A stretch of 37,093 nucleotides of DNA. Source: a virus (taxonomy: Duplodnaviria > Heunggongvirae > Uroviricota > Caudoviricetes). The notes below the pieces were generated by a model. The model made no database searches. It was not told the origin of the DNA and saw nothing but the letters and a program-made list of their open reading frames with translations. The DNA is taken from the IMG/VR virus record IMGVR_UViG_2740892211_000019. One strand, written 5' to 3'. Position 1 is the first letter of the stretch. Each line of letters starts with the position of its first letter. The translations under genes and the position numbers were made by a program. Positions 1 to 27,248 of this stretch are shown piece by piece.

Positions 1-993
1 CTAATCGATGGACAGTTTATGGACACTTTCAGCCAGCGGATTAAAGTTGATCGCGTCCAGTAAAAAGTCCGGCGAAAAATGAGCGTACGTCATTGTTTGC
101 TGAATCGTTGCGTGCCCCAGGATTCGTTGCAACGTAACAATATTTCCGCCATTCATCATAAAGTGTGTGGCAAATGTATGACGCATGACATGCGTAGCCT
201 GCCCCTTCGGCAAATCCGGTTTCACCTCCTGAAGAATCTCCCGGAACTTCAGATAATCAACCTGATACAATAACCCCGTTCGACGGGTTTTAATCAGAGG
301 CACGACCGAATCCGCCACAGGAACCGAACGGGATTTTCCGTTTTTGGTGTTAAAGAACGTCACCCGGTTGCCAACGATATGCTCTCCACGTAGTTCCGAT
401 GCTTCACTCCATCGGGCACCAGTAGAAAGACACAGAATGGCAACACGACGCGCATCACCCTCCAGTCGCTCAAGAAGCCGTTCAATCTCATCATCAGAAA
501 GAAAGGCCATCTCTGTGTTCTGAACTTTCAGTTTTCGTATACCGCGTACAGGGTTCGCGTTGTGAAAGACCTCAGCTTCAATCAGCACCGTGAACATGGT
601 AGACAGTACGCATAAGTCACGATTAATACTGGACGGCATTAATCCGGCCTGTAATTTCTCTGACCGATATTCAAGCATAAATTTTCGCGTCATCTGACTG
701 GCGCGAGGATCTCCCATTTCACGAACAACCTTCCCTAGCCTAACCCTGTAGCTATCCCCGTAAGCCTGATTACGCCCATCAAGCATCCACCACGCATCAA
801 GCAGCTCTGATAATCGCCGCTGATCAGCTGGCTTAGCCTGCCATGGCTTGTCATGAAAGTTCTGTAACACATACTTCTCAAACTCCTGAGCCTTTGATTT
901 CAGGGCAAAGATTTTTCGAATCCGCTTTCCTTCCGCCCCCTGCGGTCTGACATCGACCTGATAACGTCCGTCTTTGAGTTGCTTAATCGACAT
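1..993 (-). CDS. int: Phage tyrosine integrase (P2-type site-specific recombinase)
   Basis: ORF 1..1008 (minus) translation carries the C-terminal catalytic region of tyrosine recombinases (HVMRHTFATHF ... LGHATIQQTMTYAHFSP). Preferred start is the ATG at 991..993 (MSIKQLKDGRYQ), preceded by GGAGGGG. The stop codon lies at 1..3, so the gene is complete. Adjacent divergent repressor fits P2 synteny. Confidence 0.9.
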   Translation of the reverse strand: MSIKQLKDGRYQVDVRPQGAEGKRIRKIFALKSKAQEFEKYVLQNFHDKPWQAKPADQRRLSELLDAWWMLDGRNQAYGDSYRVRLGKVVREMGDPRASQMTRKFMLEYRSEKLQAGLMPSSINRDLCVLSTMFTVLIEAEVFHNANPVRGIRKLKVQNTEMAFLSDDEIERLLERLEGDARRVAILCLSTGARWSEASELRGEHIVGNRVTFFNTKNGKSRSVPVADSVVPLIKTRRTGLLYQVDYLKFREILQEVKPDLPKGQATHVMRHTFATHFMMNGGNIVTLQRILGHATIQQTMTYAHFSPDFLLDAINFNPLAESVHKLSID

Positions 994-1062
994 GATTAGC
1001 CCCTCCAACGGATAAATTAACTAAACACTCCTTGCGATATGTAATTCGCTCAATGTGTAGAG

Positions 1063-1404
1063 TCAGCCAACATTGCGGCCTGATCGGGGTGATTTTTGGG
1101 TAATACCGATTGAAACCTGATCGCCCTCCGACTGAATAGATCCATCAAGAGAGAGAGCCGGAGCAATCTGCCCGGCGACAGGTAGCGTCTTATCTTTTAT
1201 TAGCCACAGCATGTATTTTTCAAAGCGATCGACTTGCAGAACCGCCTCAACGATTTTTGCTCTAGCGTTCTTTTGCCCCGATTCGTAATTCCTTATGGTT
1301 GCCAAAGACAACCCAGTAATATCCGCAAACTGCTTTTGTGTTAACCCTTCCGCCTTACGTATCTGACGTAACTTTTTTGCGTAGTCTATTGACAAGATAA
1401 CCAT
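1063..1404 (-). CDS. Immunity repressor, XRE-family helix-turn-helix (C/CI analogue)
   Basis: ORF 1063..1458 (minus) contains a classic HTH (LTQKQFADITGLSLATIRNYESGQ). Sits between int and the divergent early operon. Internal ATG at 1402..1404 with an AGAGG upstream is the preferred start; the longer form starting at 1458 is possible. Confidence 0.7.
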   Translation of the reverse strand: MVILSIDYAKKLRQIRKAEGLTQKQFADITGLSLATIRNYESGQKNARAKIVEAVLQVDRFEKYMLWLIKDKTLPVAGQIAPALSLDGSIQSEGDQVSIGITQKSPRSGRNVG

Positions 1405-1426
1405 TTGAGTATTAACCTCTCGCACA

Positions 1427-1448
1427 AAGATAACCTTTTGGTTATCTT
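1427..1448. promoter_or_regulatory. Perfect inverted repeat AAGATAACC-tttt-GGTTATCTT in the divergent int-C / early promoter region; candidate operator
   Basis: Palindrome read directly from the sequence. A further AGATAACC half-site lies about 30 bp upstream, next to a TTGACA -35-like hexamer at 1389..1394. Confidence 0.4.
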
Positions 1449-1508
1449 TACAAGCCAAAACAAACCATCACAAGGCGCGACAAGCGCACCAACGCAAGAG
1501 GATAACAA

Positions 1509-2030
1509 ATGCGGGACTTCATTGCCGATAAAGAGTTATCTGACCACCAACCACTTCAGGAAAGTGACGCACTCAGCGGATCCATTGATGCCGCCAACGA
1601 CGACGAGCACGAAGAAAACAAGAAAAAGCGTTCCTACAAAAAAGGAGCGACTTTGCGGCTGGATGGTCCGATCGCCGGGCTTTGCTCTCTGGAAAAAGGC
1701 GCGGCATATATTGGGCTAACAAAATCTGCACTGCGCGTAGCCATTCATCGCGGTCAAATGCCGGGACACAAGACGCGCACAAACCCGGAAGATGAAAACT
1801 CAGACGGAGTATGGTGGTTTAACGCCAAAGAGTGGGACAAGTTGGCTGATGAGCTACCAGAGCACGAGCCCCCAGAATGGCACAACTGGAAAAGTTACTG
1901 GACGTATGACCGCCAGAAAAGGAAGTTCTCTCCAGCTAATAAAGAAGACTGCCAGACCATTAACGGTAAGCGAGTTTATACAGGCAGAAGCTCAAAACTG
2001 GACCAACTCAGAAACAACAGAGGCAACTAA
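1509..2030 (+). CDS. Cox/Apl-like early protein (putative excisionase / early regulator) with N- and C-terminal extensions
   Basis: First gene of the rightward early operon; RBS AGAGGA before the ATG at 1509. Central segment (AAYIGLTKSALRVAIHRGQMP ... DGVWWFNAKEWDK) resembles the HTH plus tryptophan-rich pattern of P2 Cox as I recall it. Position matches cox. Confidence 0.45.
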   Translation: MRDFIADKELSDHQPLQESDALSGSIDAANDDEHEENKKKRSYKKGATLRLDGPIAGLCSLEKGAAYIGLTKSALRVAIHRGQMPGHKTRTNPEDENSDGVWWFNAKEWDKLADELPEHEPPEWHNWKSYWTYDRQKRKFSPANKEDCQTINGKRVYTGRSSKLDQLRNNRGN

Positions 2031-4492: not shown

Positions 4493-4755
4493 CCATTCTG
4501 GACTACATCGCTACTCATCCGGGGTGTAGCGGCGGAGAGATCGCCGCAGCACTGAATACTCCAACCACAGCCATTAATGCTGAGTTACGCCAACTTTGGC
4601 GCGGCGGCTTAGTCATCAGAACAAACCGCAGCACAGGTGGTCGCGCTCGCAAAACTGGAGGCCAGGCTTCTTACCACGTAAACCCGATGCCGTTCGGGTG
4701 TAGCAATCCACTTACTCACATGTTTAACCAGCTACTGAAGGAAGCCAGAGCATGA
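4489..4755 (+). CDS. Hypothetical protein, possible winged-helix DNA-binding protein
   Basis: ORF track; overlapping start/stop with both neighbours indicates translational coupling. Fold assignment is only a guess from sequence character. Confidence 0.45.
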   Translation: MTILDYIATHPGCSGGEIAAALNTPTTAINAELRQLWRGGLVIRTNRSTGGRARKTGGQASYHVNPMPFGCSNPLTHMFNQLLKEARA

Positions 4756-5051
4756 GCACCATCAACCACCAGAAGCTACGCGAACTGGCATTTGCCCTGC
4801 AACGAATGGCAACGCCTCAAAAATTACTGGCATTTCGCGCAATGCTCTCGCCGTCTGCTGTGCTGGCATTGCTGGATGAGCTGGAGCACGCCAGAACCAC
4901 GGCTCCTGCCATTCGCCTGACGCTCCATCATGAAATCGCTGATTTCTGCGCGACATTGGAGGCGCCAGGCGAACCGGAAACGCCGGAAGCAATACAGCAA
5001 GAGCTGCTGCAACGCATTGACAAGGTTTTTGATTTTTTTCTGAACCAGTAA
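4752..5051 (+). CDS. Hypothetical early protein
   Basis: ORF track; last gene of a coupled set, followed by an intrinsic terminator. Confidence 0.5.
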   Translation: MSTINHQKLRELAFALQRMATPQKLLAFRAMLSPSAVLALLDELEHARTTAPAIRLTLHHEIADFCATLEAPGEPETPEAIQQELLQRIDKVFDFFLNQ

Positions 5052-5142
5052 GAAACCAGAGCATGCACACACAAAAAAACCGCTTGCCATGCCGCAATCG
5101 GTCAGGTTACATTTCCGCTGCACCTCATAAAACGGGTGCCGG

Positions 5143-5366
5143 GATTCTCAACCCGATACAGAGCAAAGCGCATAACCGCGCCAGCGGTTTTTTTGTGCGT
5201 ACTGTATTGCCACGTCTTTTTCGCGTCAGAATTATGGCGGGGCGTACGGGGCCGACTTCGGTCGGGCCGGATTCTTTGCTCTCCGGTGTTGAGAACCCTG
5301 TACGTCTCGCCACCCCGAGATTCTCAACTCTGGATGGTGAGTTATTTCTATCACCGAGCAAAGAGG
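5143..5366 (+). promoter_or_regulatory. Structured leader / candidate cis-regulatory RNA with a cUUCGg tetraloop hairpin and mutually exclusive repeat pairings
   Basis: Segment A (5143..5168) GATTCTCAACCCGATACAGAGCAAAG. Segment B (5271..5297) is nearly its reverse complement. Segment C (5317..5333, with GAGCAAAGAGG at 5356..5366 forming the RBS of the downstream ORF) directly repeats A. Hairpin GGCCGAC-TTCG-GTCGGGCC at 5250..5268. Confidence 0.3.
5174..5194 (+). terminator. Rho-independent terminator (AACCGC-gcca-GCGGTT followed by a 7-T run)
   Basis: Hairpin plus T-tract read directly from the sequence, downstream of the 4752..5051 ORF. Confidence 0.6.
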
Positions 5367-5373
5367 CCACACC

Positions 5374-5604
5374 ATGGCAAACCGCAAACAGCACCGCGCT
5401 ATCGCGGAGCGTCGTCACATCCAGACTGAAATCAACCGCAGACTTTCCCGCGCATTCCGCGTCGCTAAAATCATGCACATCAATATGCTGCATGAGCGTA
5501 GCTGCGAACTTTCAAACCTCTACTCATCCGCTGTTTTCAGCTATCTGGCGGATGATCTGCGCGAGCTTCAACAGCTCATCCAGCAGCAAAACAAACTCCA
5601 TTAA
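5374..5604 (+). CDS. Hypothetical small basic protein
   Basis: ORF with AGAGG RBS 8 nt upstream of the ATG at 5374; lies immediately downstream of the structured leader. Confidence 0.4.
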   Translation: MANRKQHRAIAERRHIQTEINRRLSRAFRVAKIMHINMLHERSCELSNLYSSAVFSYLADDLRELQQLIQQQNKLH

Positions 5605-5676
5605 TTCCTGTTCCGGGCCTTTCCTGCACCTTGCGGCGGGAGGCCTTCGCACATCTGTAACAAGAGGATTGCCGCA

Positions 5677-6042
5677 ATGATTCTCGCCAACGACTTTCTT
5701 GAATACCTGCTCAACACAGAGCGTGATCTTGCCGCTCGCGTACGTGATCGTTATGACATGTATCTGAAATCCCTGCCTGTGCCGCAGCTCGCTGACGGAA
5801 AGATTGTTATTGATGGTCGCTACATGATTGACAGCCACGAGGGAAATTACAGGCTTTACCGCATTGAAGGTGGCACCCCGTCCGTTATTGGCATTTACCA
5901 GCGCCCATCCTCTGCAATCGTCGATGTGATTGCCGACAGCATCCGCATCACACATCGCCATGCCGACACAGAAGACACCGTGCTGGAAATTCAGCGGCTG
6001 GCTGCCGTCTGCCGCGACACCCTGAATGGCATGACGAAGTAA
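5677..6042 (+). CDS. Hypothetical protein immediately upstream of replication gene A
   Basis: ORF track; RBS AAGAGGA; ends 6 nt before the gpA start. Confidence 0.55.
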   Translation: MILANDFLEYLLNTERDLAARVRDRYDMYLKSLPVPQLADGKIVIDGRYMIDSHEGNYRLYRIEGGTPSVIGIYQRPSSAIVDVIADSIRITHRHADTEDTVLEIQRLAAVCRDTLNGMTK

Positions 6043-6048
6043 ATCACT

Positions 6049-8871
6049 ATGACGGCAGAGTACATCAGGGACTGGCAACAACCGCGCCACGCAGTGGGAC
6101 GTGAAGGAACGGGGATCCCCGTTCCTGAATCCGCGCTTTCCTCCTGGCTGGATGCCTACCGGGCAGAGAACGAGCGCCGCCAGGAAATGGCTGATGCGGC
6201 GTTCTCCGCCACGCCGCTGGGCAACCTGATTAATAAAAGCCTGGATGCACAGGAAAAACAGGACAAAACCATCACACTGGCAGGAGACGCCAGAAAACAG
6301 GTACGCGGTGCGGTGGATGAAGCCATGGCCTCGCTGCGCCTGCTGCCGTCCTATCTGCGCGATCCGCTTATTCGCCACCTCTCCTTCCTGCGCAAAAAAC
6401 AGGAAGCCGATCGCCGGAAAGGCAAAAAGAGCTGGCAGGCTGAACGCTACGCGCGCGGAACCCTGCGCAAAATATTCGAACGTCTGGACCGCACCGACCA
6501 CCGCTGGCTGACACCGGGTTATCGCTCCCTTGCCGGACGCGAACGCCTGGATGATTTGCTTTACCTGCCGCAGCTCAACAAGCACCAGATACAGACGCTG
6601 GCCACCATGACGGCGGCGATGTTCAGCAGCACCTTCGAAAAACTCTGCGATGGCTTTGGCGCGACTGATGGCGAGCTGACCATGGATGTAACGCTGAAGG
6701 CGTATCAGATGCTGGCCCGCATGGCGTTACACCTGCACGCCATGCCTCCGCATTATGACGCACTGACAACAGACAAAGACCGGAGGAACGAACCGGACAC
6801 GGAGCTGCTGCCGGGCGCAATCCTTCGCCTGACCTGTGCGGAATGGTGGAAACGCAAACTGTGGCTGTTACGTTGCGAGTGGCGGGAAGAACAACTCCGC
6901 GCCGCCTGTCTGGTTTCCAGAAAAACATCGCCCTATCTGAGCCAGGACGCGTTAAGCGAGTTTCGCGCACAGCGCGAGAAAACACGCGATTTCCTGAAAA
7001 GTTTCATGCTGGAAAACGAAGACGGGTTCACGATTGATCTCGAGACGGTGTATTACGCGGGAGTAAGTAACCCGGTTCACCGTAAGGCAGAAATGATGGC
7101 CACCATGAAGGGGCTGGAACTTCTGGCCGAAGCCCGTGGCGACAAAGCGGTGTTTCTGACTGTCACCTGCCCGTCAAAATACCACGCCACAACAGAGAAC
7201 GGTCATCCGAATCCCAAATGGAACGGGGCCACCATGCGCGACTCCAGCGATTACCTGGTTAACACGTTTTTTGCGGCGGTCCGCAAGAAACTGAACCGCG
7301 ACGGCCTGCGCTGGTATGGCATCCGCACGGTGGAGCCTCACCATGACGGCACCGTGCACTGGCATATGATGGTCTTTGCTCATCCGGAAGAAATCGACAC
7401 CATTGTGTCCCACACCCGCGATATTGCCATTCAGGAAGATCGTCACGAGCTGGGTGATGATATTACCCCACGCTTTAAGGCGGAGTACGTCGACGGCTCA
7501 AAAGGCACACCGACCAGCTACATCGCCACCTACATCGGGAAAAACCTGGACAGCCGTGCCGTGGATGGCATCGACCCGAAAACGGGCAAGCCACGCGTTG
7601 ACCACGAAACCGGAAAATCAATGGCCGAGAGCGTGGAACGCGCCATCGGCTGGGCGCGCCTTCACCGGGTCCGCCAGTTCCAGTTCTTTGGTATCCCCTC
7701 CCGTCAGGTGTGGCGTGAACTGCGCCGCCTTGCCAGCCAGATGGCTCGCAACCCGGAAGGACCGCAACGGCTGAAGGATGACGCAATGGACGCGGTTCTT
7801 GCTGCCGCTGATGCCGGATGTTTTGCCACCTACATAGAGAAACAGGGCGGCGTACTTGTTCCACGCAAGGACTACCTGATTCGCACCGCCTACGACCTCG
7901 CCGATGAGCTGAACGATTACGGTGAACAGAGCGTACAGATTTACGGGATCTGGTCACCGCTCATCGGGGAGTCTTCCCGCGTATGCACGCATCCGGACAA
8001 CTGGAAGCTGGTAAGACGCAAACCGGAAGCGGAAGACAGCGCCCGCGAAAATGGTTTTGACCTTCAGGGCGGCCCTGCCGCACCTTGGACTCGTGGCAAT
8101 AACTGTCCCCGTGTACAGGAAACGGACAACAACGGGACAGAACAGCCGGAAGAACGGCCAGCACCGTGGCCGCAGCTTCCTGACGGCGTTGACGTGAACG
8201 AATGGATGCGCTCACTGAAACGGCACGAACGCCGGGCGCTGATGCGTTCGCTGCGTGACAAACAGGCAAAAAACAGCAGTGATGAAATGCAGAGCTGGAC
8301 ACAGAGCCGCAAACAGCAGCGGCCTTTGCCTGATAACCACGAATTACTCGCTAAAGAATGGCGGGAATCTGCCGAATCTCTCGGCCTGCATATCGGTGAA
8401 CAGCAGATGCAGCACCTGTTACGGGGCGGCAGCCTGTACGTTGACGGCAGCATCATTGCACCGCAGGGATTTGAAATTGTACGCAAACCGGATACCCGCC
8501 CGGACAGCCGAATCACGCAGCTCTGGCAGCGCCTGAGCCGTAATCACGGCGTAAGCAGCACGGAGATCCGCCATAACCCGGTCGCCAGCTATCTGGAACA
8601 GCTGGGGGCATCAGACCCCGAAGCCGCCGCACGTCTGGCATCCACACTTCAGCAGGACCAGAACACCATGAACCCCCCCGTTACCGTGCTTTCTGACATG
8701 CTGCGCGCCATCCGCGACGCAGAGCACGCACAGAGAATCAGTGAAACCACTGAACGTGCCCGCCGCAAAGCAGACCTGCTGCGGGGTGGCCTGACCAGTG
8801 GAAACAAAAAACAGACAGAAACGGGATTCACAAATCCCGTAAATGAGCAAAAAACGCGCCGCGATATATGA
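6049..8871 (+). CDS. A: Replication initiation endonuclease (P2 gpA-like rolling-circle initiator), 940 aa
   Basis: ORF track. Contains the HUH-type metal-binding motif (HHDGTVHWHMMVF) and a tyrosine-bearing block (TSYIATYIGKN) typical of P2 A-family initiators; position matches P2 synteny. Longer than my recollection of P2 gpA. Confidence 0.9.
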   Translation: MTAEYIRDWQQPRHAVGREGTGIPVPESALSSWLDAYRAENERRQEMADAAFSATPLGNLINKSLDAQEKQDKTITLAGDARKQVRGAVDEAMASLRLLPSYLRDPLIRHLSFLRKKQEADRRKGKKSWQAERYARGTLRKIFERLDRTDHRWLTPGYRSLAGRERLDDLLYLPQLNKHQIQTLATMTAAMFSSTFEKLCDGFGATDGELTMDVTLKAYQMLARMALHLHAMPPHYDALTTDKDRRNEPDTELLPGAILRLTCAEWWKRKLWLLRCEWREEQLRAACLVSRKTSPYLSQDALSEFRAQREKTRDFLKSFMLENEDGFTIDLETVYYAGVSNPVHRKAEMMATMKGLELLAEARGDKAVFLTVTCPSKYHATTENGHPNPKWNGATMRDSSDYLVNTFFAAVRKKLNRDGLRWYGIRTVEPHHDGTVHWHMMVFAHPEEIDTIVSHTRDIAIQEDRHELGDDITPRFKAEYVDGSKGTPTSYIATYIGKNLDSRAVDGIDPKTGKPRVDHETGKSMAESVERAIGWARLHRVRQFQFFGIPSRQVWRELRRLASQMARNPEGPQRLKDDAMDAVLAAADAGCFATYIEKQGGVLVPRKDYLIRTAYDLADELNDYGEQSVQIYGIWSPLIGESSRVCTHPDNWKLVRRKPEAEDSARENGFDLQGGPAAPWTRGNNCPRVQETDNNGTEQPEERPAPWPQLPDGVDVNEWMRSLKRHERRALMRSLRDKQAKNSSDEMQSWTQSRKQQRPLPDNHELLAKEWRESAESLGLHIGEQQMQHLLRGGSLYVDGSIIAPQGFEIVRKPDTRPDSRITQLWQRLSRNHGVSSTEIRHNPVASYLEQLGASDPEAAARLASTLQQDQNTMNPPVTVLSDMLRAIRDAEHAQRISETTERARRKADLLRGGLTSGNKKQTETGFTNPVNEQKTRRDI

Positions 8872-8947: not shown

Positions 8948-9907
8948 ATGAAAATTTGTATCGACGACGGCTCCACCAACATCAAGCTGGCATGGACTGA
9001 GAATGGCGAACGCCGCAACGCCATCAGCCCGAACAGCTTCAAGTCGGAATGGTCTGCGCCGTTCGGTGGCATGCAGCCCGCGAACTACATGCTTGATGGC
9101 GTGCGCTATGGTTTTGATCCGGTCAGCGATCGCTTTGTCCAGACGACCGACACGCAATACCAGTACAGCGATGTGAATGTAATCGCCATTCATCACGCGC
9201 TGGTCAAATCAGGCATCACGCCACAGGAGGTGGATGTGGTTGTCACCCTGCCACTGAGCGAGTATTTCGACACAAACGCACAGCCGGACATGGCCAACAT
9301 CAACCGCAAAAAAGCGAACGTTATGCGCCCGGTGGAGTACCAGAACGGCGAAGCATTCACTATCCGTAACGTGCGGGTTATGCCTGAATCCATTCCGGCT
9401 GGCTTTAAAGCACTGGCTGACATGAGTCCGTTTGAATCCCTGCTGATTGTGGATTTAGGCGGAACCACGCTGGATGTGGCAAAGGTTCAGGGGCAACTGG
9501 CAGGTATCAGCCAGGTGTTTTGCGATCCACACGTAGGCGTCTCCCTGATGGCCGGTGCCGTGCTGTCGGTGATGGCCGCTAACGGTATGCGTACCAGTCA
9601 CCACATCGCCAATACCATTATCGAACATCGCCATGATGAAGCCTGGTTGCGCCAACACATCCACAATGACGCGCATTACGCCAGCCTGATGGCGGTTATT
9701 CGTGAAAAGGAAGAAACACTGAAACAACGCGTGATCCGCGCGCTGGCGGGTTTTTCGGGTTACGGGCGGGTGATGGTTGTCGGTGGCGGGGCGGAGATTG
9801 TGGCACCCGCTATCCGCGAAGCCTGCGGAGTTAATGCGACTTTCATCGCGGACGGGGTGCCACAGTTTGCTCTGGTTAATGGGCTGTACGCAATGGACAA
9901 GGAGTAA
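8948..9907 (+). CDS. parM: ParM/StbA-family actin-like ATPase (type II plasmid partition NTPase)
   Basis: Translation carries the ParM signature blocks as I recall them from plasmid R1 StbA/ParM: CIDDGSTNIKLAW, YSDVNVIAIHHAL, VMPESIPAGF, LLIVDLGGTTLDVAKV, VMVVGGGAE. RBS AAGGAAAAG before the ATG at 8948. Confidence 0.85.
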   Translation: MKICIDDGSTNIKLAWTENGERRNAISPNSFKSEWSAPFGGMQPANYMLDGVRYGFDPVSDRFVQTTDTQYQYSDVNVIAIHHALVKSGITPQEVDVVVTLPLSEYFDTNAQPDMANINRKKANVMRPVEYQNGEAFTIRNVRVMPESIPAGFKALADMSPFESLLIVDLGGTTLDVAKVQGQLAGISQVFCDPHVGVSLMAGAVLSVMAANGMRTSHHIANTIIEHRHDEAWLRQHIHNDAHYASLMAVIREKEETLKQRVIRALAGFSGYGRVMVVGGGAEIVAPAIREACGVNATFIADGVPQFALVNGLYAMDKE

Positions 9908-10245: not shown

Positions 10246-10707
10246 ATGGCAACTATCCCCAAAAAATGGTTACAACGCAAAATTGCAGACCTTGAATCGT
10301 GTCGTGAAGACATCCCGTTTGGCCTTGATGAAAACGATCACAATATGTTAATCGCACTGAAAATCGCACTCACATCGCTGGAAGCAGAGGCAGTTATGTT
10401 CTGTATATCAGGACAAAATGTAGATTCAGAAGAACATGTATCAACCAGCAAAGCGGTTGTTGATGCCTGGGTTGAAGAATGGAATCAGGTTGACGGAAGT
10501 CCTGGCGAACCACTGTACAAAACTATGCCACTCTACTATCACGCTGCCTTGCCAGCGCCGGTAGTGCCGGAAGAAGCAACTCCGGAAAACGTAGAAATGC
10601 TCTCTGGCTATGTTTCCACATACAAATTAACCGATAGCGAGCGCGATATTGCTGCCGAAATATGGAACGCCTGCCGCGCCGCTATGCTTCATGGGAAAGG
10701 AGAGTGA
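10246..10707 (+). CDS. Hypothetical acidic protein (153 aa), third gene of the parMR operon
   Basis: ORF track; RBS AGGAGAGGAG before the ATG at 10246. No family recognised. Confidence 0.6.
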   Translation: MATIPKKWLQRKIADLESCREDIPFGLDENDHNMLIALKIALTSLEAEAVMFCISGQNVDSEEHVSTSKAVVDAWVEEWNQVDGSPGEPLYKTMPLYYHAALPAPVVPEEATPENVEMLSGYVSTYKLTDSERDIAAEIWNACRAAMLHGKGE

Positions 10708-26670: not shown

Positions 26671-27248
26671 TGGCATTCAGAATGAGTGAACAATCACGGA
26701 CCATAAAAATTTATAATCTACTGACCGGAACCAATGAGTTTATTGGTGAAGGTGATGCATACATTCCACCTCATACAGGTCTGCCAGCAAACAGTACCGA
26801 TATTGCCCCGCCAGATATTCCGGCTGGCTTCGTGGCCGTTTTCAACAGTGATGAGGCATCGTGGCATCTCGTTGAAGACCATCGGGGTAAAACGGTTTAT
26901 GACGTGGCATCAGGGGACTCGTTATTTATTTCTGAACTCGGTCCATTACCGGAAAATGTTACCTGGTTGTCGCCGTATGGAGAGTATCAGAAGTGGAACG
27001 GCACATCCTGGGGGAAAGATGCAGAAGCAGAAAAACTGTTTCGGATAAGGGAGGCGGAAGAAACAAAAAACAGCCTGATGCAGGTAGCCAGTGAGCATAT
27101 TGCACCACTTCAGGATGCTATAGATTTAGATATTGCGACGGAGGAAGAGACATCGTTACTGGCTGCATGGAAGACATATCGAGTATTGTTGCATCGTGTT
27201 GATACAACAGTAGCAGCAGATATTGAGTGGCCAGTCGCCCCACAATAA
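26670..27248 (+). CDS. G: Tail fibre assembly chaperone G
   Basis: ORF track, 192 aa; start overlaps the H stop; synteny. Confidence 0.8.

Follow-up and report, generated by a model that had tools for sequence, protein, structure and literature searches.

Background

The immunity regions of phages P1 and P7 and of the satellite P4 follow a classical layout, which is a1b1 – c4 – a2b2 in P1/P7 and seqA – CI – seqC in P4 (PMC3632133). The C4 RNA of P1 is a processed, trans-acting antisense repressor; it blocks translation of ant around the ribosome binding site (RBS) and underlies the heteroimmunity of P1 and P7 (PMC12197685). IsrK and C4 have been described as structural homologues of P4 seqA and CI RNA (PMC3632133). 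In Gifsy-1, IsrK pairs in trans with the C4-equivalent region, which leads to translation of the anti-repressor and to induction of the prophage; the experimental model for this system is translation of a small open reading frame (ORF) and not a processed antisense RNA (PMC4825925), and this ORF appears to start at an AUG at the 5' end of C4. A search of the literature on Xuanwuvirus and on seqA/seqC returned no paper on such a module in P88-like phages.

Organisation of the locus

The window (the whole stretch of viral DNA that was analysed, 37,093 nucleotides, IMG/VR record IMGVR_UViG_2740892211_000019) was searched with the covariance models of Rfam. Two RNAs exceeded the curated thresholds, isrK (5120-5194) and C4 antisense RNA (5230-5317), with 35 nt between the two matches. 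Positions 5084-5376 very probably constitute a complete IsrK–C4 module, serving RNA-based secondary immunity and anti-repressor control in a P88-like, P2-family prophage of E. coli. Such a module is an already known phage device from a curated and experimentally studied class, shared with a1b1–c4–a2b2 (c4 of P1/P7), seqA–CI–seqC (P4) and IsrK–STnc1160 (Gifsy-1). Because the prophage also encodes a C repressor of the P2 type and a Cox-like protein, the RNA is more likely a second layer of immunity, as in P1, than its sole or primary factor. The features of the locus are as follows:

5084..5113, + strand: promoter-like site for the IsrK-like RNA (TTGCCA, 18-nt spacer, TACATT; 9/12 consensus matches)
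5120..5196, + strand: IsrK-like sRNA (equivalent to c4-a1b1 and to P4 seqA), Rfam RF01394
5145..5152, + strand: a1, first 'a' copy TTCTCAAC, complementary to the C4 bulge a'; position equivalent to the annotated a1 of P1
5160..5168, + strand: b1, first 'b' copy AGAGCAAAG, complementary to the C4 loop b'
5236..5314, + strand: C4-type antisense RNA, predicted mature length 79 nt, Rfam RF01695; ends by alignment to P1
5273..5282, + strand: b' UCUUUGCUCU, which forms the loop of the second hairpin of C4; complement of b1 and b2
5288..5295, + strand: a' GUUGAGAA, the 8-nt single-stranded joint in C4; complement of a1 and a2
5321..5328, + strand: a2, second 'a' copy TTCTCAAC, starting 7 nt past the predicted 3' end of C4 (6 nt between); equivalent to a2 of P1
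5356..5365, + strand: b2, second 'b' copy GAGCAAAGA plus a G·U pair, overlapping AAGAGG (5361-5366), the Shine-Dalgarno sequence of the next gene (start at 5374)
5374..5604, + strand: ORF76 (76 aa), homologous to epsilon of P4, the helper derepression (anti-repressor) protein, by Pfam, BLASTP, PHROG and PGAP
5677..6042, + strand: ORF121, unknown function, PHROG 3237 match
6049..8871, + strand: P2-type replication endonuclease gpA, from the ORF list and the annotation of near-identical phages

Repeated segments

The first-pass annotation had described three segments, A and B as near-perfect inverted complements and C as a direct repeat of A that includes the RBS, so that B could pair with either; an intrinsic terminator and a UUCG hairpin were placed between A and B. 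The whole was read as an attenuator or RNA switch or, alternatively, as a small structured ncRNA. All of these elements were recovered, at the same coordinates or within a few bases of them, and the region is indeed a regulatory RNA element.

The complementarity of A and B is real but falls into two blocks, one of 8 nt and one of 9 nt, with a spacer between them that measures 7 nt in A and 5 nt in B; positions 5142-5152 pair with 5288-5298 (11 nt, 91% complementary) and 5160-5168 with 5274-5282 (9/9). Segment B pairs with two blocks of C, 5282-5295 with 5321-5334 (14 nt, 86%) and 5273-5281 with 5356-5364 (9/9). That C directly repeats A was confirmed for both blocks, 5139-5152 versus 5315-5328 (93% identical) and 5158-5168 versus 5353-5363 (91%). 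This pattern is far beyond chance: TTCTCAAC occurs four times in the 37-kb window (1.16 expected), three of them within a 190-nt stretch and in the required orientations, and GAGCAAAG six times (1.31 expected; six copies were reached in 0/100 shuffles), again with three in the 190-nt stretch. The remaining occurrences of the a-word and the b-word were considered as additional trans targets of C4 within the window and rejected, each being single and unpaired.

Segment A is the target copy a1/b1 inside the IsrK-like sRNA; segment B, which comprises the b' loop and the a' bulge, is part of the C4 RNA, as is the cUUCGg hairpin; and segment C is the target copy a2/b2. Of the earlier readings, the small structured ncRNA is the correct one; isrK and C4 both score above their gathering scores.

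IsrK-like RNA and its candidate promoter

The RF01394 match (62.8 bits, gathering score 50, E 2.7e-11) covers model positions 1-77 of 77. The RNA begins with two hairpins at its 5' end; a single-stranded stretch comes next, and then an intrinsic terminator with its stem at 5174-5189 and a run of U after it. The fold has a z score of -2.5. The terminator reported between A and B is present, but it forms the 3' end of a separate IsrK-like sRNA.

The start of this RNA is predicted near 5120, and the site at 5084-5113 is, by its sequence, a candidate promoter. A consensus promoter scan found 2 sites against 1.9 in shuffled sequences, which is not above chance overall. Most of the 18 compared loci have a TTGAC-type -35 element and a TAnAnT-type -10 element at the same distance before isrK. 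An A7 tract (5073-5079) is located where the UP element of a promoter would lie.

A long-range pairing of 5067-5087 with 5180-5200 was included in the covariation check; its arms hardly vary, and the few changes in homopolymer length are inconsistent. By way of the 21-nt arm 5067-5087, transcripts of the early operon may pass the IsrK terminator, with those from the IsrK promoter stopping there.

C4 antisense RNA

The RF01695 match (78.5 bits, gathering score 45, E 6.4e-14) spans 5230-5317 and model positions 1-87 of 87. The ends of the mature RNA were set by alignment to the annotated C4 RNA of P1 (L020 744-820), and the flanks AAUUAU|GG (5') and GCCACC (3') are identical to those at the annotated P1 ends. 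RNA folding, which had been proposed as a check, gave the family structure with a long closing stem, two hairpins and a single-stranded joint; the minimum-energy fold (-47.1 kcal/mol) makes up 73% of the ensemble and has a z score of -5.3. The parts are a 16-bp closing stem (5236-5251/5296-5311), the cUUCGg hairpin (5252-5265), a second hairpin (5266-5287) and the 3' tail ACC. The UUCG hairpin had been drawn slightly too long: its stem has 5 bp (5252-5256 with 5261-5265), and the outer G and C belong to neighbouring helices. Across 36 distinct relatives the closing stem is paired in 100% of its cells; one of its pairs shows a compensatory change, and in four others only one side varies. By analogy with P1, C4 would be excised by RNase P and act as a repressor in trans.

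Two further candidates were rejected. A second promoter just upstream of C4 (5207-5235, TTGCCA-17-AATTAT) is doubtful; its predicted start lies inside the C4 closing stem, and the -35 element (TTGCCA/TCGCCA among close relatives) is missing in the lambdoid and P1 loci. Most of the 18 loci share the AATTAT; in P1, which is one of these, it forms the leader to the RNase P site. A tRNA, tmRNA or attachment-site remnant was dismissed, ARAGORN giving no match in the window.

Target sites and covariation

The pairings of C4 with its targets comprise 8 nt (a'/a2) and 9 nt (b'/b2). The end of b2 lies 9 nt before the ATG, as compared with 10 nt before the icd ATG in P1. The earlier proposal that the element controls the genes ahead of gene A is judged to be right.

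Conservation and covariation of the paired segments had also been proposed as a check, and the covariation of both A/B and B/C proved to be very strong, in agreement with the claim that B can pair with either partner. The refuting condition named earlier, a lack of conservation or covariation, is thereby clearly contradicted. Compensatory changes were found at 4/8 pairs of the a1:a' helix, 6/8 of b1:b' (99.3% of cells paired), 4/8 of a':a2 and 6/9 of b':b2 (98.5% of cells paired). For C4 together with a'/a2 and b'/b2, 96.3% of the cells are paired and the covariation score is 0.269 (0.091 in shuffles, 0/500 as high), and slid controls gave 39-45% paired; for a1/a' and b1/b' the corresponding values are 96.7% and 0.324 (0.070 in shuffles, 0/500 as high). 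Among 116 related viral contigs 27 a/b combinations occur, and 114 of the 116 keep all four helices at ≥7 bp. In all 18 compared loci, which come from different phage groups, a complement of a' (7-8 nt) is present in the upstream sRNA and again just after C4, and the complement of b' ends 2-14 nt before a start codon (18/18). Compared with a 96%-identical relative, divergence is concentrated in the three interacting sites (78-82% identity).

Mean C4-target duplex energies were -32 and -37 kcal/mol for cognate pairs and -21.6 and -20.9 kcal/mol for non-cognate pairs. A non-cognate control based on helix length with G·U allowed had little power to discriminate, as many of the a/b types are only 1-3 positions apart; the duplex-energy matrix and the shuffles are the better controls. 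One natural recombinant (L131) has a non-cognate IsrK part and a cognate a2/b2, so a matching a1/b1 is not strictly maintained.

Presumed regulated gene and downstream genes

ORF76 matches Pfam PF25738 'Derepression' (29.5 bits, cut-off 27), P4 epsilon (BLASTP E 1e-8, 29% identity) and PHROG 3688 (E 3.5e-45), and it carries the PGAP name 'derepression protein'. By this homology it is a putative anti-repressor. No similarity to Icd of P1 was found, and an assignment as an Icd homologue was rejected, as was that of ORF121 as a homologue of P4 orf151 (E 0.16). An NCBIfam scan of the five flanking ORFs gave nothing useful.

ORF121 and gpA (5677..8871) are probably co-transcribed with ORF76. The scan of 5235-6500 revealed no promoter-like site on either strand, and no terminator-like site was found on the plus strand after 5271. 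The C/G ratio at 5350-5627 is 1.5-1.67, as compared with 1.08 for the operon, a composition with which termination by Rho would be plausible. The related phage 520873 (L006) possesses gene A and lacks the module, which is therefore not needed for expression of gpA as such.

Proposed mechanism and alternative readings

Transcription would enter at the candidate promoter (5084-5113) and, in addition, from the upstream early operon. The terminator (5174-5196) would stop many of these transcripts, yielding an IsrK-like sRNA of about 75 nt with the target copy a1/b1. Read-through transcripts would contain C4 (about 5236-5314), in which a tRNA-acceptor-like stem surrounds the two hairpins, and a cut by RNase P at 5235/5236, as in P1, would release it. 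Two short antisense stretches would thereby be exposed, b' in the hairpin loop and a' in the 8-nt bulge, and could pair with b2 (5356-5365) and a2 (5321-5328) on the same or on another transcript. This pairing would cover the Shine-Dalgarno sequence, so the epsilon-like anti-repressor gene would not be translated; the untranslated, C-rich message would then probably be cut short by Rho. Such polarity would hold down ORF121 and replication gene A in the lysogen, and likewise on any superinfecting phage whose a/b type is the same. IsrK, with its identical a1/b1 copy, would compete for C4 by titration, and abundant IsrK would relieve the block, upon which the anti-repressor would be made and the prophage repressor, whose gene lies at 1063-1458 on the minus strand, inactivated.

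The most likely mechanism is that C4 blocks translation of the anti-repressor and that IsrK titrates C4; by polarity C4 probably also lowers the expression of gpA. RNase P cleavage and Rho polarity are carried over by analogy from P1 and P4, and the P1 annotation itself gives the role of a1/b1 only as 'putative'. Hfq binding and trans activation may be expected of the RNA as traits of the IsrK class, by analogy to functional data from Gifsy-1 only (PMC4825925).

The best-surviving alternative, which we regard as possible though not probable, is that the locus works mainly in the manner of P4: pairing of C4 with a1/b1 and a2/b2 would cause premature termination of transcription before the anti-repressor and replication genes, and masking of the RBS would not be primary. 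The literature on P4 as summarised in PMC4825925 and PMC3632133 supports this mode of action. It also fits that the CI RNA and the seqA region of P4 match the same Rfam models, that the regulated gene is an epsilon homologue followed by a gene order up to the replication gene that parallels P4, and that the downstream region is rich in C and poor in G. However, b2 overlies the Shine-Dalgarno sequence exactly as in P1, and this overlap, together with the 2-14 nt spacing in all 18 loci, points to translation as the primary target. In P1 and P4, termination follows from blocked translation; termination and RBS masking are thus not mutually exclusive.

It is improbable that the region is purely a leader switch in cis, as the earlier reading had it, in which the choice between B/A and B/C within one transcript decides between termination at 5174-5196 and exposure of the RBS, with no RNA acting in trans. 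Folding of the whole leader does pair B with C in cis and bury the Shine-Dalgarno sequence, and the read-through transcript of Gifsy-1 is inactive, its IsrK part being paired with the C4-equivalent part (PMC4825925). An attenuator, however, needs its terminator downstream of the sensor; here B is preceded by the one plus-strand terminator that has a U run, and it therefore cannot affect that terminator co-transcriptionally. Nor is the element a ligand- or ribosome-sensing attenuator or riboswitch: no riboswitch or leader family reached the Rfam threshold in the window, and isrK and C4 were found instead. Moreover, C4 folds autonomously and very stably, and its ends are conserved and correspond to those of the processed RNA in P1; the RNA of P1, P7 and P4 acts in trans and sets immunity specificity (PMC12197685, PMC3632133), and in Gifsy-1 it is the short IsrK that acts in trans (PMC4825925); and 27 a/b types in otherwise near-identical DNA are what would be expected of a trans-acting determinant of self and non-self.

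That the region is instead protein-coding, with incidental repeats within a 205-codon ORF (5063-5680; PGAP 'ash family protein' in many E. coli genomes), is very hard to sustain: the frame is open in the window and in 91/116 related loci, weakly matches Pfam Phage_ASH, overlaps the start of ORF121 with its stop as ATGA and includes the AUG of the conserved AAUUAUGG motif, which by the numbering in PMC4825925 appears to be the start of Gifsy-1 orf45, but the Phage_ASH score (18.7) is below the cut-off (26), stops occur in frame in 25/116 loci, the frame crosses two RNA genes at Rfam threshold as well as ORF76, which has real homologues, and 33% of codon differences are synonymous in the frame of ORF76 versus 12% in that of ORF205.

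Distribution and diversity

Of the 18 related phage loci scanned, 17 carry the pair of isrK and C4; phage 520873 does not. The module is present in 1296/5426 complete E. coli genomes (about a quarter), where its usual labels are "ash family protein" or "derepression protein". Over the region 5060-5680, E. coli JNEC-KY175 is 100% identical to the window. RefSeq and GenBank records usually give this locus a protein name ("ash family protein", "transcriptional regulator") or call it hypothetical and do not present it as two RNA genes.

At least 8 'a' types and at least 21 'b' types occur in varying combinations against a background of DNA with 90-96% identity. We tentatively suggest, as one possibility among others, that in P88-like (Xuanwuvirus) prophages of the P2 family the IsrK–C4 module is a hypervariable, combinatorial RNA lock-and-key that gates an epsilon-type anti-repressor and the replication gene. 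If so, the a/b variation would determine which relatives, co-resident or superinfecting, come under repression. The homology and gene order in common with seqA–CI–seqC–epsilon of P4 suggest that the satellite's cassette for immunity and helper derepression shares ancestry with, or was exchanged with, that of helper-type phages; an epsilon-type anti-repressor under C4 control in a P2-type phage would link helper and satellite regulatory cassettes. The many a/b types in near-identical prophages form a natural data set on the diversification of an RNA–RNA recognition code.

Comparison with known systems

Both Rfam families occur in tandem in isrK – orf45/STnc1160 – anrP of Gifsy-1 (Salmonella), in the isrK–C4–antirepressor cassettes of lambdoid and Stx phages and in the N15 region, which matches both RNA models and has a small processed RNA of this kind. 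In most such phage loci the gene that immediately follows the tandem RNAs bears an annotation as anti-repressor or regulator, and the upstream sRNA has its own promoter (predicted in the window) and terminator. The anti-repressors of this group are of the Rha, AntB or AnrP type and not epsilon-like, and the phages are lambdoid or N15-like. In Gifsy-1 a 45-codon ORF over the C4-equivalent sequence is coupled to anrP by an AUGA overlap (PMC4825925), whereas the window's frame from AUG 5234, which by the numbering in PMC4825925 is the likely equivalent, has no stop at the start of ORF76.

In P4 (seqA – CI RNA (seqB) – seqC – epsilon … alpha) the CI RNA matches the C4 model with 74.9 bits and the seqA region matches isrK with 60.8 bits. 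The downstream gene is homologous (epsilon, E 1e-8), the operon ends in a replication gene, and the gene order seqA-CI-seqC-epsilon-orf151-orf106-alpha parallels that of the window. A spurious 'cI/Ash' ORF lies over the RNA in both; the corresponding P4 'cI protein' ORF is the locus of the CI RNA. Unlike the window, with its C repressor and Cox-like protein, P4 is a satellite without a protein repressor for these genes, and the RNA is its primary immunity factor. Epsilon lies about 245 nt after CI in P4, whereas here b2 is directly on the RBS of the epsilon-like gene, and ORF121 is not similar to orf151. The a/b sequences also differ from those of P4, so no cross-reaction with P4 itself is expected.

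The immI region of P1/P7 (a1, b1 – c4 – a2, b2 – icd – ant) differs in that the first regulated gene here is epsilon-like without similarity to Icd, and Ant1/2 are absent; in that the upstream a1/b1 element scores here as isrK with a clean intrinsic terminator and in P1 matches the related c4-a1b1 model, not isrK; and in that the window represents an integrating P2-type phage with a replication gene downstream, P1 being a plasmid prophage. On the other hand, C4 belongs to the same Rfam family in both (68.8 bits in P1, 78.5 in the window), and the experimentally annotated immI region of P1 matches the window site by site in the order a1, b1, C4, a2, b2, start codon, with nearly the same spacing of the six sites and an a1-b1 gap of 7 nt in each. 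In both, the bulge holds a' and the loop of hairpin 2 holds b', the flanks AAUUAU|GG and GCCACC are conserved, and the output is an anti-repressor, which in the present locus would be the product of the epsilon-like gene.

Identification and genomic context of the two RNAs

The window was scanned against Rfam at the curated thresholds, and two adjacent full-length matches, isrK and C4 antisense RNA, were found on the plus strand; tRNA and tmRNA genes were searched for in the window, and none was present. As a class the element is known, and standard Rfam scanning detects it. The features, together with the repeat segments A, B and C of the first-pass annotation, are collated below.

Features of the leader and of the genes downstream
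5052-5373: leader stretch, flanked by a 99-aa Ead/Ea22-like ORF (4752-5051) and a 76-aa epsilon-like ORF (ORF76, 5374-5604)
5120-5194, plus strand: isrK (RF01394), 62.8 bits against a gathering score of 50
5143-5168: segment A, within the IsrK-like RNA
5174-5189: terminator stem followed by a U run, forming the 3' end of the IsrK-like RNA
5230-5317, plus strand: C4 antisense RNA (RF01695), 78.5 bits against a gathering score of 45; its first internal hairpin is the UUCG hairpin
5271-5297: segment B, the loop of the second C4 hairpin plus an 8-nt single-stranded joint
5317-5333 and 5356-5366: segment C, directly downstream of C4
5677-6042: ORF121, downstream of ORF76
6049-8871: gpA, P2-type replication endonuclease, 940 aa, downstream of ORF121

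When its sequence was folded, C4 adopted its family structure with the antisense sites a' and b' exposed. These are complementary to two target copies (a1/b1 upstream, a2/b2 downstream), and b2 overlaps the Shine–Dalgarno sequence (SD) of ORF76. The window retains the end sequences of mature P1 C4 (5' AAUUAU|GG, 3' GCCACC), from which a mature RNA of 79 nt (5236-5314) is predicted.

The window is a P88-like (Xuanwuvirus, Peduoviridae) prophage, and 4700-6100 has 93-95% identity to several P88-like phages. The gene order annotated in those phages is integrase, C repressor, Cox, small early genes, MarR-type wHTH protein, Ead-like protein, "derepression protein", hypothetical protein and replication endonuclease; the integrase, repressor and cox-like layout matches at window 1-2030. 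ORF76 scored above the threshold of the Pfam family 'Derepression' and aligned with P4 epsilon, the helper derepression protein (E 1e-8). Two further features of the prophage were recorded: a 319-aa ORF directly 3' of gpA (8948-9907, plus strand), whose counterpart in a near-identical phage is labelled 'plasmid segregation protein ParM', an unusual cargo in an integrating P2-type prophage; and a full-length Rfam match to IS009 (RF02111) in the late region (27013-27211, plus strand; 175.7 bits against a gathering score of 117).

The IsrK–C4 module was found in 1296 of 5426 complete E. coli genomes, where only protein-coding features ("ash family protein" or "derepression protein") are listed at the matches; one phage record (H96) carries "isrK Hfq binding RNA" and "C4 antisense RNA" at the homologous place. 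Because the related Xuanwuvirus phage 520873 is without window 4761-5561 (the Ead-like ORF, IsrK, C4 and most of ORF76), its flanking homologous segments being only about 21 nt apart, the cassette is accessory and behaves as an indel unit of about 800 bp.

Repeats and pairings in the leader

The first-pass annotation had described A and B as near-perfect inverted complements, C as a direct repeat of A, and a UUCG hairpin between A and B; from the sequence alone it had already spotted the a1b1/a'b'/a2b2 logic of the C4 system. All three repeats were located in the window, A and C as direct repeats. The repeat observation was confirmed, since the words TTCTCAAC and GAGCAAAG each occur three times in the needed orientation within about 220 nt, far in excess of the 1.2-1.3 copies or so expected per whole 37-kb window. 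A and B are indeed complementary, but in two blocks with unequal spacers (5142-5152/5288-5298 and 5160-5168/5274-5282), and the UUCG hairpin is present with a stem of 5 bp. B and C pair through 5282-5295/5321-5334 and 5273-5281/5356-5364.

Conservation and covariation

The comparison of the module took in 17 further phage records (P88-like, Stx-converting, mEp460, N15, Salmonella, Yersinia, Klebsiella and P1); each has C4 and an upstream element of the isrK or c4-a1b1 type. In every record one and the same 7-8-mer complementary to a' occurs twice, once within the upstream sRNA and once a few bases 3' of C4 (N15: 7 nt upstream, 8 nt downstream). The complement of b' also has two copies, one within the upstream sRNA and the other 2-14 nt ahead of the start codon. 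The a and b sequences themselves vary from phage to phage. Mean duplex energies for cognate C4-target pairs were -32.2 kcal/mol (downstream site) and -37.2 kcal/mol (IsrK), against -21.6 and -20.9 kcal/mol for non-cognate pairs.

Viral contigs were scanned by exact match to the C4 hairpin-1 sequence, giving 120 loci (116 usable) with 27 b'/a' combinations (21 b types, 8 a types). All four helices are kept at 7 bp or more in 114 of the 116, the clear exception being the IMGVR contig L131, a recombinant with a foreign IsrK part. Its module (10292-10548, minus strand) has a1/b1 of another type (TTTCCAC / CAAACGAAG) and C4, a2 and b2 of the window type, and so offers a ready-made natural test of the need for matching a1/b1.

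Covariation was scored in a gapless alignment of 37 P88-like modules (257 columns). For C4 with a'/a2 and b'/b2, 96.3% of cells were paired (slid controls 39-45%), with a covariation score of 0.269 against 0.091 for shuffled alignments and compensatory changes in six of nine b pairs and four of eight a pairs. For a1/a' and b1/b', the figures were 96.7% (slid controls 35-52%) and 0.324 against 0.070, with compensatory changes in 10 pairs. None of 500 shuffles scored as high in either case.

Compared with a relative 96% identical overall, the window falls to 78-82% identity at three places, 5150-5199, 5250-5299 and 5300-5399, with about 100% between them. Such a pattern is expected of a specificity determinant and parallels P1/P7 heteroimmunity, which is explained by c4 (PMC12197685). 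A further divergence hot spot, with 80-90% identity between flanks of about 100%, lies at 5450-5549 in the latter half of the epsilon-like gene. ORF76 is highly polymorphic (62 distinct sequences in 101 loci of related contigs) and may co-vary with its presumed target repressor. Among the Stx-converting, mEp460, Salmonella, Yersinia and other phages (loci L008-L018), a and b specificities are reshuffled independently: phi346 and P14437 have b in common and differ in a, and the window and N15 have identical a' and different b. Swapping one specificity takes at least two exchanges, given the interleaved order of the sites (a1 b1 … b' a' a2 … b2).

Proposed mechanism and alternatives

By analogy with P1, P4 and Gifsy-1, transcription would start from a promoter at 5084-5113, and its partial termination would yield IsrK. 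The position of this candidate promoter upstream of isrK is conserved in most of the compared loci, with only a 9-of-12 match. From the read-through transcript, C4 would be excised by RNase P, for which the relevant reference is Hartmann et al. 1995, as listed in PMC11143913. C4 would then pair with a2/b2 and block translation of the epsilon-like gene, Rho-dependent polarity would extend the effect to ORF121 and gpA, and IsrK would titrate C4. The stretch 5350-5627 is C-rich and G-poor; scans revealed no promoter-like site in 5235-6500 and no plus-strand terminator-like site after 5271 up to 6500. In the fold of the whole leader, B pairs with C in cis and the SD is buried, so even an unprocessed read-through transcript is probably self-repressed.

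Termination control of the P4 type does not exclude this scheme; the two are compatible. Three points make a purely cis-acting switch, as the first-pass annotation had considered, unlikely: B comes after the terminator, C4 folds stably on its own and has conserved flanks for processing, and such a variety of specificity types suggests recognition in trans.

The arms of a 21-nt inverted repeat (5067-5087/5180-5200, 90% complementary) lie on either side of the candidate IsrK promoter and the IsrK gene. The upstream arm, ACACACAAAAAAACCGCTTGC, precedes the -35 element, and the downstream one consists of the terminator's 3' half and its U tract. In the predicted minimum-energy fold of a transcript from an upstream start (5052-5204), a long-range helix replaces the terminator hairpin, so early-operon transcripts might read through and those from the IsrK promoter terminate. 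Alternatively, the A7 tract of the 5067-5087 arm is merely a promoter UP element. The core of the repeat is conserved in P88-like loci with different upstream genes, with no informative covariation.

The overlapping reading frame

A 205-codon ORF (5063-5680) overlies IsrK, C4 and ORF76. PGAP names it 'ash family protein' in numerous E. coli genomes; in phage P88_4B11 its label is 'transcriptional regulator'. Its assignment as an Ash family protein was rejected: the Pfam score is below threshold, stops interrupt the frame in 25 of 116 loci, synonymous codon differences amount to only 12% (33% in the ORF76 frame), and the ORF crosses both RNA genes as well as a gene that has genuine homologues. 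The annotation is probably an artefact produced by a conserved RNA. The stop of the ORF overlaps the ORF121 start codon (ATGA, 5677-5680). The ORF includes the AUG of the conserved AAUUAUGG at the 5' end of C4, which, by the nucleotide numbering in PMC4825925, would be the start codon of Gifsy-1 'orf45'.

Comparison with known systems

What appears to be undescribed is confined to the context and the population-level picture, on which a literature search returned no paper: the phage is of P2 type, the anti-repressor is epsilon-type, gpA lies downstream, and prophages that are nearly identical carry a great many a/b types. The motifs "c4 antisense RNA" and "c4-a1b1" are both listed by Weinberg et al. 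(PMC2864571). Barquist et al. (PMC3632133) describe IsrK and C4 as structurally homologous to P4 seqA and CI RNA, and refer to an IsrK-C4 immunity system that P4, P1, P7 and N15 use and that is also found in lambdoid prophages. In Gifsy-1, according to PMC4825925, IsrK provided in trans pairs with the C4-equivalent region, turns on translation of the downstream anti-repressor and induces the prophage, the pairings having been verified by compensatory mutations.

In P4, the CI RNA locus matches the C4 model (74.9 bits) and the seqA region matches isrK (60.8 bits), with epsilon, orf151, orf106 and replication gene alpha downstream, the same logic as ORF76, ORF121 and gpA in the window. The P1 record is annotated in the order promoters, a1, b1, C4 RNA, a2, b2, icd and ant; as in the window, a' occupies the joint and b' the hairpin 2 loop. 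The a1-b1 gap is 7 nt in both, a2 starts at +4 relative to the C4 3' end in P1 and at +7 in the window, and b2 ends 10 nt and 9 nt, respectively, before the start codon.
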